64,000 nucleotides of DNA from an uncultured delta proteobacterium (GCA_963755905.1 CAVWLM010000006.1:538559-602558), one strand, 5' to 3'; counted from the stretch's first letter, positions 615 through 43,141 are shown. The notes: generated by a model not told the origin, from the letters alone. Program-made: numbers and translations.

Positions 615-2129
615 ATGTCCGTTCAGATGCCGACCCGGGAGCAACTGCGCGCGGTGGCGCGGCAGTGTGGACTGTCGCTGGATGACGCCGGCGTGGATTC
701 GTTTCGCGCGCTGTTTACCACCTACGTGGACGCCTACAACACCGTCGCCGCGATGCCCGACGAGGTGCCGCGGGTCAAGTATCCGCGGACGCCGGGTTAT
801 CGGCCCGGTCCCGAGGAGAACAAGTACAATGCCTGGTACTTCAAATCGTCCGTCAAGGGTGCGAACGAGGGCAAGCTGAAGGGCAAAACGGTCGCGCTCA
901 AGGACAATATCATGCTCGCGGGCGTGCCGATGATGAATGGCGCAGCGACGATGGAAGGCTACGTGCCGGACTTCGACGCCACCCTCGTCACGCGGATCCT
1001 GGATGCCGGCGGAGAGATCGTCGGCAAGGCCCATTGCGAGTGTTTCTGCCTTTCCGGCGGAAGCCACACCAATGCCACCGGCGCGGTGCACAATCCGCGC
1101 AAGATGGGCTACTCGGCGGGCGGCTCTTCCTCCGGCAGCGCGGCCCTGGTGGCGGCAGGCGAGGTCGACATGGCGATCGGGGGCGACCAGGGCGGCTCGA
1201 TTCGCATGCCGTCGTCATTTTGTGGCGTGTACGGCATGAAGCCCACCTGGGGGCTCGTTCCTTACACCGGGATCATGCCGATCGAGATCTTCGTCGACCA
1301 TACCGGCCCGATGACCGGCAACGTCGCCGACAATGCGTTGCTGCTGGAGGTCATCGCGGGCGACGACGGCTACGATCCCCGGATCAAGGCGCCGCAGGTG
1401 CATCCTTACTCGCAGGCGCTGGGCCGCGGCGCGAAGGACTTGAAGATCGCGATCGTCAAGGAAGGCTTCGGCCATCACAATTCCGAACGCGCGGTCGACG
1501 AAAAAGTCCGCGCCGCCGCGAATCGCCTGGGCACGCTGGGCGCGCACGTCGAGGAAGTTTCGATTCCGATGCATCTCGCGGGCGCCGCGATTTGGACGCC
1601 GATCGGTATCGAGGGCCTCACGCAAACCATGATGTACGGCGACGGCTTCGGGGTGAGCCGCGACGATCTTTATTCGACCTCGATGATGGACTTTCATCGC
1701 GGATGGCGCCAGCGAAGCAACGAAATGTCGGAAACGACCAAGCTCTTCCTGATGCTCGGCACCTACGTGCGCGAGAACTACGGCTCGCGCTACTACGGCA
1801 AGGCGATAAATATCGTGCGCCGGCTGCGCGCGGCCTATGACGAGGTGCTCAAGAAGTACGACCTGCTGCTGATGCCGACCACGCCGATGAAAGCGACGCC
1901 GTTGCCGCAGCCGAACGCCAGCCGGGAGGAATACGTCACGCGGGCGCTCGAGATGATCGCCAATACCGCGCCCTTCGACCTGACCCATCATCCGTCGATG
2001 TCGATCCCGTGCGGAATGATCGACGGTCTGCCGGCCGGACTGATGCTGACCGGCAGGCACTTCGACGAGCCGACGATCTATCGCGCGGCGGAGGCCTTCG
2101 AACAGTCGGCCGACTGGAAAAAGCTGTAG
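615..2129 (+). CDS. Amidase (amidase-signature family)
   Basis: AS signature GGSSSGSAALVAAG...GGDQGGSIRMPSSFCGVYGMKPTWG; 504 aa. Confidence 0.85.
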   Translation: MSVQMPTREQLRAVARQCGLSLDDAGVDSFRALFTTYVDAYNTVAAMPDEVPRVKYPRTPGYRPGPEENKYNAWYFKSSVKGANEGKLKGKTVALKDNIMLAGVPMMNGAATMEGYVPDFDATLVTRILDAGGEIVGKAHCECFCLSGGSHTNATGAVHNPRKMGYSAGGSSSGSAALVAAGEVDMAIGGDQGGSIRMPSSFCGVYGMKPTWGLVPYTGIMPIEIFVDHTGPMTGNVADNALLLEVIAGDDGYDPRIKAPQVHPYSQALGRGAKDLKIAIVKEGFGHHNSERAVDEKVRAAANRLGTLGAHVEEVSIPMHLAGAAIWTPIGIEGLTQTMMYGDGFGVSRDDLYSTSMMDFHRGWRQRSNEMSETTKLFLMLGTYVRENYGSRYYGKAINIVRRLRAAYDEVLKKYDLLLMPTTPMKATPLPQPNASREEYVTRALEMIANTAPFDLTHHPSMSIPCGMIDGLPAGLMLTGRHFDEPTIYRAAEAFEQSADWKKL

Positions 2130-20835: not shown

Positions 20836-22038
20836 TTGGAAAACGCTCGACAGAACCGCGCAGCCGCTCGCGTGTTCATCAAAAGAGGCCGCGAGGGACC
20901 GGTTCGCGGCGGCAATCCCTGGGTCTTCTCGCAGGCTATCGATCGCGTCGAACCAGCGGCCATCGAACCCGGCGCGCGCGTGTGGGTTCTCGACGCGGCC
21001 GGGACGACGCTGGGACACGGCTATTACAATCCGGCGACCACGATCGCGGTCCGAATGCTCGCACTTGGCGGCGAGCCCGGTCCCGCCGAAATTGTTAGCT
21101 GGCGTATGCGGCGCGCGCTCAGGCTGCGCGAGCAACTGATCGGCCCGGACACGGATTGTTATCGTATGCTCAACGGCGACGGCGACGGCCTCTCGGGCGT
21201 GATCGTCGACCGCTACGGCGAGGTCGCGGTGGTGCAACTGCTGACCGCGGGCGCCGAGCGGATGCGCGCGGAGATCGTCGAGCAACTAAACCTGACCATC
21301 TCGCCGCGCGCTATTTTCGAGCGCAGCCAGGGCGCCGTGCGCAGACAGGAGGGCCTCGAAGATCGCGTGGGTCTGATCGCGGGTTCGCCGGCCGGAGAAG
21401 TCCTGGTGCGCGAGAACGATCTGCGAATGACCGCCGACCTGGAGCACGGGCAGAAGACCGGCGCGTTTCTCGACCAGCGCGAGAATCGCGCCCACTTCGG
21501 CCGGCTGGCCGCCGGCGCGCGCGTGCTCGATTTATGCTGCTACGGCGGGGGCTTCGCGCTGAACGCGCTCAAGGGCGGCGCAAACGAAGTCGTCGCCGTC
21601 GACACTTCCGCGCATGCGCTCGATTGGGCGCGGCGCAACCTTGAGCTCAACGGCTATCCGCCCGACGCCGTCCGCTTCGTGCACGGGGAGGCGGGCGAAT
21701 TGCTCGCCAGGCGGGACGGAGTTTTCGATTCGATCGTGCTCGACCCGCCGCCATTTGCGCGCAGTCGCGGCGACGCGCGGCGCGCGGAACATCTATACGT
21801 GGAACTCAACGCGCTCGCGATGGGCGCGCTGAGCCCCGGCGGCTTCCTCATGACCTTCAGTTGCTCGTCGCACTTTCGCGGCGAGGATTTCGTCCGCGCG
21901 GTGAGAATCGCCGAAGGCCGCTCGGTGCGCCGGATGCGCCTGCTCGCGCGTCTGGGTCCCGGCCCCGACCATCCGGTGCTGCTGGGCCATCCCGAGGGCG
22001 AATATCTGACTGGAGTGTTGTTGCGCGACCTCGGCTAA
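20836..22038 (+). CDS. rlmI: 23S rRNA (cytosine-C5) methyltransferase RlmI-like, class I SAM-dependent methyltransferase
   Basis: N-terminal NPWVFSQAIDRV; SAM motif VLDLCCYGGGFALNA; DPPPFAR motif. Confidence 0.8.
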   Translation: MENARQNRAAARVFIKRGREGPVRGGNPWVFSQAIDRVEPAAIEPGARVWVLDAAGTTLGHGYYNPATTIAVRMLALGGEPGPAEIVSWRMRRALRLREQLIGPDTDCYRMLNGDGDGLSGVIVDRYGEVAVVQLLTAGAERMRAEIVEQLNLTISPRAIFERSQGAVRRQEGLEDRVGLIAGSPAGEVLVRENDLRMTADLEHGQKTGAFLDQRENRAHFGRLAAGARVLDLCCYGGGFALNALKGGANEVVAVDTSAHALDWARRNLELNGYPPDAVRFVHGEAGELLARRDGVFDSIVLDPPPFARSRGDARRAEHLYVELNALAMGALSPGGFLMTFSCSSHFRGEDFVRAVRIAEGRSVRRMRLLARLGPGPDHPVLLGHPEGEYLTGVLLRDLG

Positions 22039-22061
22039 ACGCATCTCTCGCTCACTCATGC

Positions 22062-22200
22062 GCGTGCAAAGGTGGATGGCGATCCGCCCAGGGCGCGGCC
22101 TGCTCGATTTGCGCGGCCAAGCGCAGCAATAAATCCTCTCGTCCATAGGCCGCCACGAACTGCACGCCGACTGGCAGCCCGTCGGGCGTCATGTGCAGCG
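22062..22200. repeat. 139-bp diverged duplicate (about 95% identical) of the 3' end of the amidase gene at 24488..24626; left boundary of the inserted segment
   Basis: Direct alignment of 22062-22200 against 24488-24626 shows 7 mismatches; the copy would encode ...PLHAHE* in place of ...PLHA*. Confidence 0.8.
22094..22118. repeat. Copy 1 of the 25-nt core CGCGGCCTGCTCGATTTGCGCGGCC (candidate att core)
   Basis: Exact 25-mer present three times: 22094, 23654 and 24520. Confidence 0.8.
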
Positions 22201-22251
22201 GCCGAATACTAAACAGTTTATTGAATAGTCACTTGCCACCTCTTGCTGTTT

Positions 22252-23397
22252 CTAGCGGAGGAACCGCATCGTGGTTCCCGGCGGATACGTACCGCGCCTC
22301 CGACCATCCTTAGCTCGCACAATCTGGAGCTGCTCTGCCATCTCTAAAGGTTTCAACGTCCGGGTCTTAACGTGCGATGGTAAGTAAGGCGTCTCTGTAA
22401 GTGCGTAGTGCTCCGCATCATAGATGCTGAAGGTCCGGTCGCCGAAATGAATTCTGAGAGCGTTGCGGAGTTGTGTCGTGTCCGGCTCCGGCTGGAATAG
22501 CGTTATCTGATCCGACGATGTCGAGTCGGCAAATCGCTGCCCCGCCGCGGGGTCGGTCTTCCACATAGCCTCCTTCATCTTCTGCAGGCCGAGCTCATGC
22601 TTCGTCCCGAAGAAAAGGTGGTATCCCGAATTCCTGTGCGCGGTGACAATCTCAAAAGATCGAACGTAGTCGAGACCGCATACACGTTTGAGCTGCGCCT
22701 GAAAAAGATTGTGAAGAAGCTGTAGTCGGGCCGCGCCTTTCAAACTGCGGGCGGCCGTCCATTCGTCGGTTCCGAACAGCGTCGTTAGAGCATTCTCTTG
22801 ATCAGGGTGCGACAAGAACCGATTGATGAAAAGAAGCGGGACGTAAATCAAAACCTCGCATCTGGCAAACTGAAGGAACCTTCCAGACAGCTGCATGCTG
22901 GCCTGAGCGTAACCAAATGGATCGATGAATGCGAAAGTAGGCGCGAGGATCTTTCCCGCTTTTTCAATGTCGTCGAGGGCCTCCCCGAAAATATCTTGAT
23001 ATGCGCCAAGCTGGATGTCGATCTTGACGTTAGCCGGGAACTGGGAACGCAGTTTGTCTACCTCACTATTGAGTCGCTCAGCGCGATCCCTATTTTCTTC
23101 AATAAAAATATAAACGAGTTCAGCGGTGATCTTTTCTCTGTACTTGTGCTCAAGAAATGACTTCAACGCGACGATCGGCGAGCCGGGCTCTCCGTCAGCA
23201 TAGACACCTGGTCCCGCGAACCCATCGATGTAAATCAGGCGGCCGTTATTCGCAGACATGATGGGCAACCACGCGTCGAGATAGCCGCGAAGGATCCTAT
23301 GTTTCGCCTTGGTGTGCGCTTCGATCCGCCAGACGGTTTCTGTCGGCTTAGCCATCGCTATCCCTGGTATTGTTTTATGGGTTCGGGATGACGACAA
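22252..23397 (-). CDS. Hypothetical low-GC cargo protein with a Rossmann/MTase-like motif I (IDGFAGPG); tentatively resembles the 'three-Cys-motif partner protein TcmP' family
   Basis: 381-aa ORF, AT-richer than the genome; N-terminus W-x5-HTKAKHRIL...YLDAW...IYIDGFAGPGVY; the family assignment is from memory only. Confidence 0.5.
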   Translation of the reverse strand: MSSSRTHKTIPGIAMAKPTETVWRIEAHTKAKHRILRGYLDAWLPIMSANNGRLIYIDGFAGPGVYADGEPGSPIVALKSFLEHKYREKITAELVYIFIEENRDRAERLNSEVDKLRSQFPANVKIDIQLGAYQDIFGEALDDIEKAGKILAPTFAFIDPFGYAQASMQLSGRFLQFARCEVLIYVPLLFINRFLSHPDQENALTTLFGTDEWTAARSLKGAARLQLLHNLFQAQLKRVCGLDYVRSFEIVTAHRNSGYHLFFGTKHELGLQKMKEAMWKTDPAAGQRFADSTSSDQITLFQPEPDTTQLRNALRIHFGDRTFSIYDAEHYALTETPYLPSHVKTRTLKPLEMAEQLQIVRAKDGRRRGTYPPGTTMRFLR

Positions 23398-23653
23398 AAC
23401 TCGTGTTCACACAAGGCACGATCGCAATCTAAACCCGAAGGCCGTCGGCCATCTGACCAGGGCCGCGGCGCGTGACTGCCGATCCGCCACGGGTAGCCGA
23501 GGTTCTCTCAATCTCCTCAAGCCAATGGACGTGCTGGCATTGGCGCCATCAACGGATCATCTGGGACTTAGCCTGCGATCGCTTCCAGCGCGGCTCCCTC
23601 ACCACGCATCGTGCGTACCAGCGCAACTCTTCGCGGAGTGGGATCTAACCATC

Positions 23654-23678
23654 ACGCGGCCTGCTCGATTTGCGCGGC
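23654..23678. repeat. Copy 2 of the 25-nt core; it is internal, between the TcmP-like and higBA cassettes
   Basis: Exact match to the 25-mer; the flanks are not homologous to the amidase 3' end. Confidence 0.75.
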
Positions 23679-23779
23679 CCCACAATCTAACAGCACCGCG
23701 CTGTCCCTGATGCGCGCTCGTGAGTACTCGATGCGATTTCGCCCGCACCAGCTCGAATCGGAAATCCAAGTTACTCCGC

Positions 23780-24064
23780 CTAGCCGAATTCCAATCGAAG
23801 CCGCATGCCCAGAACCTTTGCCGCCCGCGCCATCGTGCGCAGGGTAACCGATTCGTTGGCGGGATCAAGGAGTCGGTCGAGCGCTGCGCGGCTGGTCCGC
23901 ATCGCACGCGCCATTTCCGACTTGGACATCCGCTTCTCTTCCATCCCGCGCGAAACTTGCCAGGCGATAACTCGCTTGAGCGCCGCGGCTTCCACTTCGG
24001 CGAGGCTGTCGTCCTTGGCGAGCATCTCGTCAAGCGAAGAGCCCATACGCTTGTGCCGTTTCAT
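23780..24064 (-). CDS. higA: HigA-like antitoxin (XRE-family HTH)
   Basis: 94 aa; HTH segment MSKSEMARAMRTSRAALDRLL; its start overlaps the toxin stop by 4 nt. Confidence 0.65.
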   Translation of the reverse strand: MKRHKRMGSSLDEMLAKDDSLAEVEAAALKRVIAWQVSRGMEEKRMSKSEMARAMRTSRAALDRLLDPANESVTLRTMARAAKVLGMRLRLEFG

Positions 24065-24416
24065 CGTTCCCGCTCCACAAACCGCTTGCGCTCGATTGCC
24101 AAATTAAGATCCGGCTTCGCCGTCTTCTGCGATTTCTTGATGAAGCCGTGCAGCAGTATCATCTGGCCTTCGCTGATGCAGAACAGCACCCGAGCTGTTC
24201 GATTCCCGCCAAGCCGGTCCTTATCTTGTAAAGTCCCATTCCCATGGGCCGACAGACCGGCATTCCAATTGGCCAGCCGTATTCGACGGTTTTGATGTCC
24301 GTGCCGATGAGTATCCGCTCCGCCCTGTCTAGCGACCTGAGCCACTCCCGCACCGGCTCGCTGCCGTTCTCATTCCGGTAAAAGCGCGCTGGTATTCGCT
24401 TGCGCTGTTCAGGCAT
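24061..24416 (-). pseudogene. higB: HigB/RelE-family toxin, frameshifted near residue 65 (or a base-call indel)
   Basis: N-terminal half (IPARFYRNENGSEPVREWLRSL...GLYKIRTGLAG) sits in one frame (24159..24416) and the C-terminal half (NRTARVLFCISEGQMILLHGFIKKSQKT) in another (24061..24345). Confidence 0.55.
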
Positions 24417-24483
24417 TCAGCGTCGTACCACAAATGGTACAGCATACTCGAAGTGGTTGCCAGTGGCAGAAAGTCCAGCGATT

Positions 24484-25941
24484 TTACGCGTGCAAAGGTG
24501 GATGGTGATCCGCCCAGGGCGCGGCCTGCTCGATTTGCGCGGCCAGGCGCAGCAACAAATCCTCTCGTCCGTAGGCCGCTACGAATTGCACGCCGACCGG
24601 CAGCCCGTCGGGCGTCATGTGCAGCGGCAACGAGATGGCGGGCAGGCCCGCGATATTCCACGGCGCCGTAAAGGGGCTGACCTCGTTGAGCCGTGTGCCG
24701 ACGTTGCGCGGATGCTCGCCGGGGCGGACCTTGAAAATTCCCAGTTCCGGCGGCGGCTGAGCCATCGTGGGCGTCACCAGCACGTCGAACCCGCCACTCC
24801 ACCATCCCGCCGCCGCGCGCGAAAAATGATTGAACCATTCGCACGCGGCCATGTATTCAACCAGTTTCAAGCGACGGCCGCGCTCGATCAGGAACCAGTT
24901 CCATTCGTCGAAATCCTCGGGACCGACCGCGCGCCCGAGCATCGGCTCGACCACAGCCGCCTGGCGCGCGACGCCGCCCGCTACAACCCGGCCGAAGGCG
25001 GAGCTGAGAGTGGCTTCGTCGAGCACCGCGGGAAAACTCGGCTCGACCGTGTGGCCGATCGCCTCCAGCAATTTCGCCGCGTTGCGCACCGCGGCGGCGC
25101 ATTCGGGATGGATTCCCGGATGGGTCAGCGGGGCGCGATCCATGAAACCGATTCGTAGCCGGCCCGGCGCCTCGCCGACCTCGTCGCGGAACGGACGCGC
25201 CGGCGCCGGCGCCGTCCACGGATCGCCCGGCATGTAACCCGCGACCGCGTCCAGCGCGGCGGCGGCGTCGCGCACGGTGCGCGCCAGAGCTCCTTCCTCA
25301 CACAGGCCATGCCAGAACTCCGCGTGCGCGGGTCCGAGCGAGGTCCGTCCGCGCGAGCCTTTGAGCCCGACCAGTCCGCAGAAGGAGGCCGGAATCCGGA
25401 TCGATCCGCCAGCGTCGTTGCCATGCGCGATCGGCACGATGCCCGAGGCGACCGCGGCGGCCGCGCCGCCGCTCGAGCCGCCGGCCGTCCGCGCCGTGTT
25501 CCACGGATTGCGCGTCGCTCCCCACGCTCGCGTCTCGGTCGAGAGCGTCGCGCCCCATTCCGGCACCGTGCTCTGCGCGAGCGTGATTAGCCCCGCCGCA
25601 CGAAATTTCGCCGCCACGTACGAAGTCGCCTGCGCAACCATTTTGGCGTCCTTGAAGGGCTTCCATCCCCAGCTAAACGGCTCGCCCTCCGTCGTCTGGA
25701 GCAGGTCTTTCATCAGGAACGGCACGCCGCGGAAGATGCCATCCGGGATGGCGCCGCGGTCGTGCGCTTCGGCCCGCGCCTTGTCGTAGCGCTCGAAGAT
25801 GACGCAGTTGAGTTGCGGGTTAAGCCGCTCGATCCGCGCGATCGCGGCGTCGGCCAGTTCGGCCGGCGTGACCGCGCCCTGGGCGACGAGTTGGGCCTGC
25901 GCGGTCGCGTCGAGCCAGGTAAGTTCGTCCTTGCCGATCAT
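24484..25941 (-). CDS. Amidase (amidase-signature family), second paralogue
   Basis: GGSSGGAAAAVASG...GNDAGGSIRIPASFCGLVGLKGSRG; its 3' end carries copy 3 of the 25-nt core (24520..24544). Confidence 0.85.
   Translation of the reverse strand: MIGKDELTWLDATAQAQLVAQGAVTPAELADAAIARIERLNPQLNCVIFERYDKARAEAHDRGAIPDGIFRGVPFLMKDLLQTTEGEPFSWGWKPFKDAKMVAQATSYVAAKFRAAGLITLAQSTVPEWGATLSTETRAWGATRNPWNTARTAGGSSGGAAAAVASGIVPIAHGNDAGGSIRIPASFCGLVGLKGSRGRTSLGPAHAEFWHGLCEEGALARTVRDAAAALDAVAGYMPGDPWTAPAPARPFRDEVGEAPGRLRIGFMDRAPLTHPGIHPECAAAVRNAAKLLEAIGHTVEPSFPAVLDEATLSSAFGRVVAGGVARQAAVVEPMLGRAVGPEDFDEWNWFLIERGRRLKLVEYMAACEWFNHFSRAAAGWWSGGFDVLVTPTMAQPPPELGIFKVRPGEHPRNVGTRLNEVSPFTAPWNIAGLPAISLPLHMTPDGLPVGVQFVAAYGREDLLLRLAAQIEQAAPWADHHPPLHA

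Positions 25942-40271: not shown

Positions 40272-43141
<2,870 letters not shown>

Follow-up and report, generated by a model that had tools for sequence, protein, structure and literature searches.

Here we describe a small island lodged at the 3' end of an amidase gene in a 64,000-nt stretch of DNA from an uncultured delta proteobacterium (GCA_963755905.1 CAVWLM010000006.1:538559-602558; hereafter the window). The island lies between two direct copies of the end of the amidase gene, carries a higBA toxin-antitoxin module and an orphan TcmP gene, and is marked by three exact copies of a 25-nt core, CGCGGCCTGCTCGATTTGCGCGGCC, of which one lies in each outer repeat and one between the two cargo modules. 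Comparison with related loci shows a Campbell-type insertion between duplicated gene ends that varies among relatives, and in one or more natural populations a crossover has joined its repeats inside the core block. We propose, with a probability of roughly 45%, that the locus is a decayed tandem island resembling the cis-mobilizable elements (CIMEs), moved by a recombinase supplied in trans.

Orthologues 82-91% identical to the amidase gene are found in metagenome-assembled genomes (MAGs) of Candidatus Binataceae; the host is a Binataceae bacterium from soil, and its phylum, Binatota, is known from metagenomes alone. The window was compared with related loci and contigs, numbered L002 to L105, which comprise Binataceae MAGs, metagenome contigs and further amidase or TcmP loci. 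An earlier note on this DNA had described the segment between the repeats as AT-richer than its surroundings, and the profiles of GC content and tetranucleotide usage bear this out: the 2.28 kb between the repeats (22203-24486) has 56.0% GC against 65.5% in the flanks, and ranks lowest in GC and highest in tetranucleotide distance among 309 segments of equal size. The GC content at third codon positions is 0.61-0.74 in the island genes and about 0.80-0.85 in the neighboring genes. By composition, the island is foreign-looking DNA.

The insertion is most readily seen against relatives that share its surroundings. The window, L003 and L012 form a clade with a common gene order (major facilitator superfamily transporter, amidase, rlmI, moaC, trxB). 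The earlier note had asked whether the amidase gene abuts rlmI in related genomes free of the insert, and this is the arrangement in L003, where 23 nt lie between the amidase stop and the rlmI stop and no repeat is found. L003 thus represents an empty site, and relative to this syntenic locus the 2.3 kb is an insertion. L012 carries higBA only, with an intact toxin, between two 121-nt copies of the amidase end that differ at 2 positions, and the window carries higBA and TcmP between 142-nt repeats. The full arrangement of the window recurs in L083, L087, L088 and L090, and in several partial contigs, at 99% identity or more and from different samples and assemblers, and the seven single-nucleotide polymorphisms (SNPs) that distinguish the two repeats were confirmed directly in L080, L081 and L083. 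With at least four further independent assemblies showing the full arrangement, we rejected the explanation that the window is an assembly artefact.

The outer repeats are 142 nt long, rather than the 139 bp first given, and are 95.1% identical, with mismatches at 22080, 22120, 22130, 22145, 22154, 22160 and 22172. Six of the seven are silent when read as amidase codons, and the seventh exchanges His and Arg; at this sole non-synonymous site the left copy has kept the ancestral Arg, and it is two codons longer, ending in LHAHE and a stop codon. The exact 25-mer starts at 22094, 23655 (one base beyond the 23654 of the earlier note) and 24520, in direct orientation each time. No further copy was found in the window with up to three mismatches allowed, and shuffled sequences gave an expectation of 0. 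In a scan of metagenome contigs from the Joint Genome Institute (JGI) the exact 25-mer occurs in three contigs, all of this locus, and it is absent from the viral collection and from the other amidase loci (0/79); a degenerate-core scan of viral contigs returned chance AAQIEQAA peptides only. The idea that the 25-mer is a common genome-wide repeat, which would have undone the interpretation of the earlier note, was thus rejected.

The 25-mer encodes the AAQIEQAA region near the C-terminus of the amidase, a motif whose protein sequence is conserved across phyla. In amidases of Actinomycetota, Alphaproteobacteria, Burkholderiales and others (L014-L079), which have 40-68% protein identity, the coding DNA is identical to the 25-mer at 21-24 of 25 positions. 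This stretch is unusually conserved and would suit an integration target; strongly conserved coding motifs such as AAQIEQAA are a typical target choice of integrating elements. The 25-mer is GC-rich and contains a direct 7-nt repeat. A second amidase paralogue in the window, 22 kb away (615-2129, plus strand), has 29% identity to the target amidase and does not contain the 25-mer. In L087, a long-read assembly, the displaced amidase fragment (L087:11947-12010) shows a change from TGG to TAG just past the core, which is either further decay of a pseudogene or a sequencing error.

Recombination of the island is recorded in one metagenome contig, L082 (Ga0302324_100313299; 2398 nt), which represents a circular permutation of the island, about 30 nt short of a closed circle of 2426 nt; the other two JGI contigs that hold the 25-mer are ordinary chromosomal pieces. 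L082 runs from the 3' part of TcmP through one 142-nt repeat, higB, higA, the tail that follows the higBA module and the middle core to the 5' part of TcmP. On the stop-codon side, its repeat is flanked as in attR and matches attR at the only SNP there, and on the other side it is flanked as in attL and has attL alleles at six of six SNPs. This hybrid pattern therefore places the crossover inside the 39-nt block that holds the 25-mer and is identical in both repeats. Such a junction is the product expected of an exchange between attL and attR, that is, an excised circle or a tandem copy, which look alike in assemblies, and it therefore indicates that the island excises or amplifies in nature. 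Outside the 100-nt tail, L082 is >99.8% identical to the window. The tail itself (L082:1141-1245) is about 33% divergent from that of the window, with the divergence starting at the first base past the middle core, so that the core has stayed unchanged while about one position in three of the adjoining tail differs.

In shuffle tests the flanks of the middle core, taken as the tail in five versions and the bases past the core, are not significantly similar either to the end of the amidase gene or to the spacer upstream of oppD. The middle site is therefore a bare core of 25-26 nt. We had considered that the middle copy might sit inside a decayed relic of the amidase 3' end, and this was dropped since the flanks are not significantly amidase-like in the same tests. 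The middle core carries the synonymous states that are private to this lineage, and its unrelated flanks would fit a chimeric internal att site. In our leading reading, that of a recombinase acting in trans, the best evidence is this bare and exact internal core beside a tail diverged by one third, together with breakpoints that fall repeatedly at core edges.

Under this reading, a single Campbell-type crossover would have inserted the island, keeping the amidase frame and displacing a 142-bp copy of the gene end to a position next to rlmI. The three 25-mers would act as attL, a chimeric internal att site (attI) and attR, and an exchange between attL and attR in the core block would give rise to an excised circle or a tandem copy. 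A site-specific recombinase whose gene lies elsewhere would catalyze the exchange, much as CIMEs, the leftovers of decayed integrative elements, are moved by a related element. The island would then be a composite of two modules, namely a higBA addiction module whose toxin is broken and an orphan TcmP gene that is without DUF5131.

By definition, CIMEs are elements whose integration and transfer genes have been lost while attL and attR remain, and they are known from tandem arrays in which the internal att site is chimeric (PMC5704250). The island is like them, and like ICESt1 and ICESt3 at the 3' end of fda in Streptococcus thermophilus (PMC5704250), in its target at the 3' end of a protein gene and in its flanking direct repeats; it is also like the products of CIME tandem accretion in lacking integration and transfer genes, in its putative chimeric internal att site, and as a composite that would recombine via its outer sites. 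Unlike CIMEs, the island is just 2.3 kb in size and has no decayed integrase, excisionase or conjugation genes, the repeats extend as long stretches of host sequence on both sides of the core, and no partner integrative and conjugative element (ICE) or integrative and mobilizable element (IME) of the same specificity was seen. Its host, an uncultured Binatota lineage, also differs from those of the ICESt1/ICESt3 family. Of the features that define CIMEs, the locus shows flanking gene-end repeats, a lack of mobility genes and an internal core with unrelated flanks. In the island and the related loci searched, nothing was found to link it by descent or position to an element with an integrase, and the attP-type junction of L082 may or may not depend on a recombinase; for these reasons the locus is CIME-like rather than a proven CIME.

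The islands of the Islander/TIGER type, which lie at the 3' ends of tRNA or protein genes and restore the gene with a copy that they bring along, offer a second comparison. They resemble the island of the window in gene-end duplication, an intact frame, atypical composition, defence or addiction cargo and variable presence. Such islands carry their own integrase by one att site, whereas the window island carries none, and the similarity to the target continues for 84 nt on the upstream side of the presumed crossover, although restoring the gene does not require this. Campbell-type homologous insertion of a non-replicating circle, familiar from single-crossover integrations in the laboratory, and homology-facilitated illegitimate recombination in natural transformation likewise give a duplicated host segment of variable length and a short-homology junction such as that of L012, but they leave a bare, exact 25-nt internal copy beside fast-diverging DNA unexplained.

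The earlier note had stated that no integrase remains in the window, and our scans agree. Profile searches with Pfam and NCBIfam found no recombinase among the island genes and 20 further open reading frames (ORFs) of the window, and when motifs of tyrosine and serine recombinases were sought in the window and in 1.5 Mb of related loci, the one match, in L070, was 4.9 kb away from an amidase gene that is unrelated, had no repeats and was set aside as unrelated. A hidden recombinase among the tested ORFs was rejected on the negative profile and motif scans, and the structural model of TcmP has neither a recombinase nor a nuclease fold. A prophage or plasmid origin also finds no support: no relatives of TcmP were found in viral contigs, and the plasmid homologues of the toxin are annotated as RelE/ParE toxins, that is, as generic matches. 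No Rfam family matched the region, and scans for promoters and terminators were uninformative.

Several observations weigh against a recombinase supplied in trans. No integrase-bearing element was found at the site, either in the 64-kb window or in related amidase loci (up to 10 kb on each side), the island holds no remnants of integration or conjugation genes that would point to descent from an ICE or IME, and no clear dyad symmetry can be read from the 25-mer. The two 142-nt copies share many states that are absent from every other lineage and differ by singleton changes; of the seven positions at which they differ, six have the consensus state in one copy, and at the remaining one both copies depart from it. 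The outer repeats are therefore paralogues that both derive from the amidase end of this host, rather than one host and one foreign (attP) sequence, and the repeat copies of L012 are likewise paralogues of the gene end of their own host. The repeats of L012 differ from those of the window in length (121 nt against 142 nt) and also in their inner boundary, which in L012 falls at GGGCTG, 6 nt that match the start of the spacer found after the higBA tail in other genomes, suggesting that this boundary formed by illegitimate or homologous recombination. L082 is the sole recombinant contig found, and could be a tandem duplication or, less probably, a chimeric assembly. Finally, a decayed scrap of the amidase gene inside the island is a point that integration at att sites leaves unaccounted for. 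It lies directly past the middle core, in the same reading frame and out of gene order, matches 17 orthologous amidase genes in blastn at 63-77% identity (E down to 1e-17), and has decayed by about 30%, as compared with 5% for the 142-nt repeat; no single history that we tried to piece together accounts for the scrap along with such unequal decay of the amidase-derived pieces.

The history of the higBA module adds to these points. In at least four other Binataceae lineages, represented by L095/L096, L102-L104 and L105 and possibly L101, higBA and its tail directly follow the amidase stop, ahead of oppD where the contig reaches that far, with no second core, and L101 has the same start of higBA after the amidase in a contig that ends before the far side. 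Decayed remnants of higBA (the end of higB, the start of higA and pieces of the tail) lie between the amidase and oppD in L002 (11456-11650) and L010 (11440-11580). The loci L006 and L010, whose amidases are 98% identical to that of L095 and 97% identical to that of L101, respectively, are without an intact higBA. Between the window and L012, higBA is 95.6% identical and the amidase genes 89.0%, and the similarities among higBA modules do not track the amidase tree. Hence higBA is an old neighbor of the amidase that also moves or is lost between close relatives, and it is therefore not clearly a core-integrating element. The two central proposals of the earlier note survive in part. For site-specific integration into the gene 3' end with duplication of attB, the insertion relative to L003, the one-cassette state of L012, the L082 junction and a 25-mer private to the locus speak in its favor, and host-derived repeats of unequal length and the lack of an integrase-bearing element speak against it. 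Two tandem insertions at one core agree with a middle 25-mer with unrelated flanks, but not with higBA beside the amidase where there is no second core.

A close rival, somewhat less probable than the reading we favor, invokes host functions only. Circles that carry a piece of the amidase end would arise by illegitimate or short-homology recombination in genomes where higBA follows the amidase, and would enter the amidase gene by a single RecA-dependent crossover that duplicates the shared segment, with later homologous exchange between the repeats giving deletion (L003) or formation of circles or tandem copies (L082); the 25-mer would then be merely the best-conserved stretch, and hence the longest island of identity. 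That the repeats stem from the host lineage itself and differ by singletons, that they are 121 nt long in one locus and 142 nt in another, that the L012 junction coincides with the GGGCTG match, that higBA is an old amidase neighbor without repeats in many lineages, and that no integrase emerged from the scans are all expected if host functions sufficed. The same holds for the crossover in L082, which falls in the longest identical block, a place that homologous recombination would also favor, and for the 21-24 of 25 identities in the AAQIEQAA-coding DNA of distant amidases. What this explanation accommodates less easily is the middle site: a bare core requires crossovers within about 25 nt, or two illegitimate joints that happen to frame the same 25-mer; an exact core beside a tail that differs by 33% is unlike neutral decay (0.67^25, or about 5e-5 by our own calculation); and the core bears the private synonymous states of the lineage.

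It is unlikely that the locus is instead a static scar, left by old partial duplications of the amidase when rlmI arrived, by later invasion of TcmP and by patchy gene conversion that holds the 3' copies alike, the island itself being immobile and L082 reflecting a duplication in one strain or a chimera. Scrambled amidase pieces (residues 467-474, about 211-271, and 438-485) with unequal decay (0%, about 30% and 5%) would agree with such a history, as would the break in rlmI-type synteny about 23 nt past the amidase stop, where the leftover spacer resembles by eye the start of the spacer upstream of oppD, and an L082 that is the only contig of its kind and about 30 nt short of a closed circle. 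Against it stand the series of empty, one-cassette and two-cassette states in one small clade, the higher identity of higBA than of the amidase between the window and L012, and near-identical hosts that differ in higBA (L095 and L006, L101 and L010). In addition, L082 spans SNPs of both repeats, and a collapse over 39 nt should be impossible at the large k-mers usually used in assembly.

Cassettes that resemble those of integrons or Xer/dif modules, which bear promoters, are flanked by short structured or dif-like sites and are moved by a host or integron recombinase, are effectively excluded. The cassettes are indeed small (0.8-1.5 kb), with one gene or one toxin-antitoxin pair each and a repeated site between them, and toxin-antitoxin cassettes are typical of chromosomal integrons and pdif modules. 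An integron cassette array was rejected because neither the tail plus core nor the repeats form a stable, attC-like hairpin (DNA folding z-scores 0.1 to 1.1), and scans of the window found neither IntI nor another tyrosine recombinase nearby. Sites of the dif type are 28 bp long, with two 11-nt arms in dyad symmetry around a 6-nt spacer; pdif/Xer modules were rejected since the GC-rich 25-mer shows no such 11-6-11 dyad when set against the generally known dif consensus, lies in direct orientation in all copies and is the coding sequence of the target.

A bolder variant is that the 2.4-kb unit is a self-sufficient minimal "hitcher", a free and possibly multicopy circle that re-enters at the 25-bp amidase site, using host recombination functions alone or a recombinase of an unrecognized type. 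We regard this as improbable; it draws on one contig, and in the sample of L082 that contig is the only one found with the 25-mer.

The positions of the features discussed here are collected in Table 1.

Table 1. Features of the amidase locus, in window coordinates
Feature	Position	Strand	Basis
RlmI-like 23S rRNA m5C methyltransferase gene, convergent with amidase; attL-side chromosomal flank	20836..22038	+	Pfam Methyltrans_SAM, PUA_3
attL-type repeat, displaced amidase 3' end (residues 438-485)	22061..22202	-	tblastn 98% over 47 residues
39-nt block identical in both outer repeats (partner 24507-24545)	22081..22119	.	mismatch map
25-mer core, copy 1; minus strand encodes amidase AAQIEQAA	22094..22118	.	
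Orphan TcmP gene, 367 aa from ATG; ORF extends to TTG at 23397	22252..23355	-	TIGR04474 E=1e-57
Decayed amidase scrap, residues about 211-271, one in-frame stop	23455..23638	-	tblastn 59% over 34 residues, E=1e-5
25-mer core, copy 2, internal, attI-like	23655..23679	.	exact-match search
higBA tail, 3' untranslated, 100 nt, hypervariable	23680..23779	-	comparison with L082
higA-type helix-turn-helix (HTH) antitoxin gene, intact, 94 aa	23780..24064	-	Pfam HTH_26
HigB-type toxin gene (Gp49/RelE-ParE family), broken	24061..24416	-	ORF halves match Gp49 profile halves
Palindrome GTACCACAAATGGTAC (GTACCA-N4-TGGTAC) just upstream of higB	24425..24440	.	conserved in related higBA modules (L012, L095, L101)
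Amidase gene, intact, 485 aa, target gene	24484..25941	-	Pfam Amidase E=3e-94
attR-type repeat, 3' end of functional amidase gene; holds core copy 3 (24520-24544)	24487..24628	-	

Profile searches bear out the gene calls of the earlier note, which had placed TcmP in one cassette and higA with a frameshifted higB in the other. In the window the antitoxin is whole and the toxin, which should be intact in a type II HigBA module, is split by a 1-nt deletion in a run of C near 24206. The higA gene stands in the same arrangement in 14 contigs. The toxin gene is intact (118 aa) in L012, L095, L101, L102 and L105, and gene calls with the frameshift are again seen in L083, L088 and L090. The order of toxin then HTH antitoxin and the upstream palindrome, which is probably the antitoxin operator, are those of chromosomal type II HigBA modules, from which the module of the window differs in its frameshifted toxin. 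The tails of other lineages differ again from those of the window and L082, and all share the motif ATTCGAGC, which resembles AATCGAGC inside the 25-mer.

The TcmP protein is full length against both of its family models, matching the PADLOC candidate-defence component PDC-M30A at E=4e-51; its match to GMT-wHTH is weak. The AlphaFold model (mean confidence, pLDDT, 88) has its best matches in the PDB to RlmJ and CmoA, and TcmP is predicted to combine a class I S-adenosylmethionine-dependent methyltransferase (Rossmann) fold with a C-terminal winged helix. In the TcmP-DUF5131 pair (PADLOC PDC-M30), the partner is a three-Cys protein; here 49 nt separate the TcmP stop from the amidase repeat, and DUF5131 is missing. 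DUF5131 adjoins TcmP in L085 and L086, where the gene calls are just 96 and 192 residues long. With higB broken and TcmP alone, both cargo systems appear to be incomplete, in keeping with the view of the earlier note that the cargo looked decayed or of the defence type. Homology to other TcmP loci is confined to 22231-23424, ending within tens of bases of the ORF, and the TcmP homologues of L084, L085 and L086, at 76-87% nucleotide identity, lie in unrelated contexts. It would seem, then, that TcmP moves as a very tight unit, and it may often outlive its DUF5131 partner. Look-ups of exact proteins gave no match for the amidase and for TcmP read from the TTG start, and returned contigs for HigA and for TcmP read from the ATG start.

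The flank gene rlmI matches the RlmI-type models of NCBIfam below their curated cut-offs. In most Binataceae relatives (L002, L004, L007, L009, L010, L013, L027 and L095), oppD-oppF, not rlmI, lies downstream of the amidase. Two other genes of the window are frameshifted: an IMP dehydrogenase gene (41456-43096, minus strand) has two compensating frameshifts about 90 nt apart, and a D-Ala-D-Ala ligase gene (40272-41500, minus strand) is split by a frameshift. These suggest indel errors of long-read assembly in the window. Unlike them, the higB frameshift recurs in independent assemblies of other metagenomes.

The kind of element described here is already known; new are its occurrence in this host phylum, its amidase target, how very small it is and the fact that every intermediate state is available. 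The locus provides a clean natural case in which defence and addiction genes are lodged in a conserved gene end and persist after the mobility genes have gone. The empty, one-cassette, two-cassette and recombinant-junction states are all recoverable from public data, and this series makes the choice between a helper integrase and homologous recombination by the host testable with existing reads. If the circle is not real and abundant, then the locus is a routine decayed island; if it is, the locus points to a very small class of hitch-hiking elements. Should the unit prove self-sufficient, it would represent a new class of tiny integrative cassettes that spread defence and addiction genes without a mobility gene of their own.

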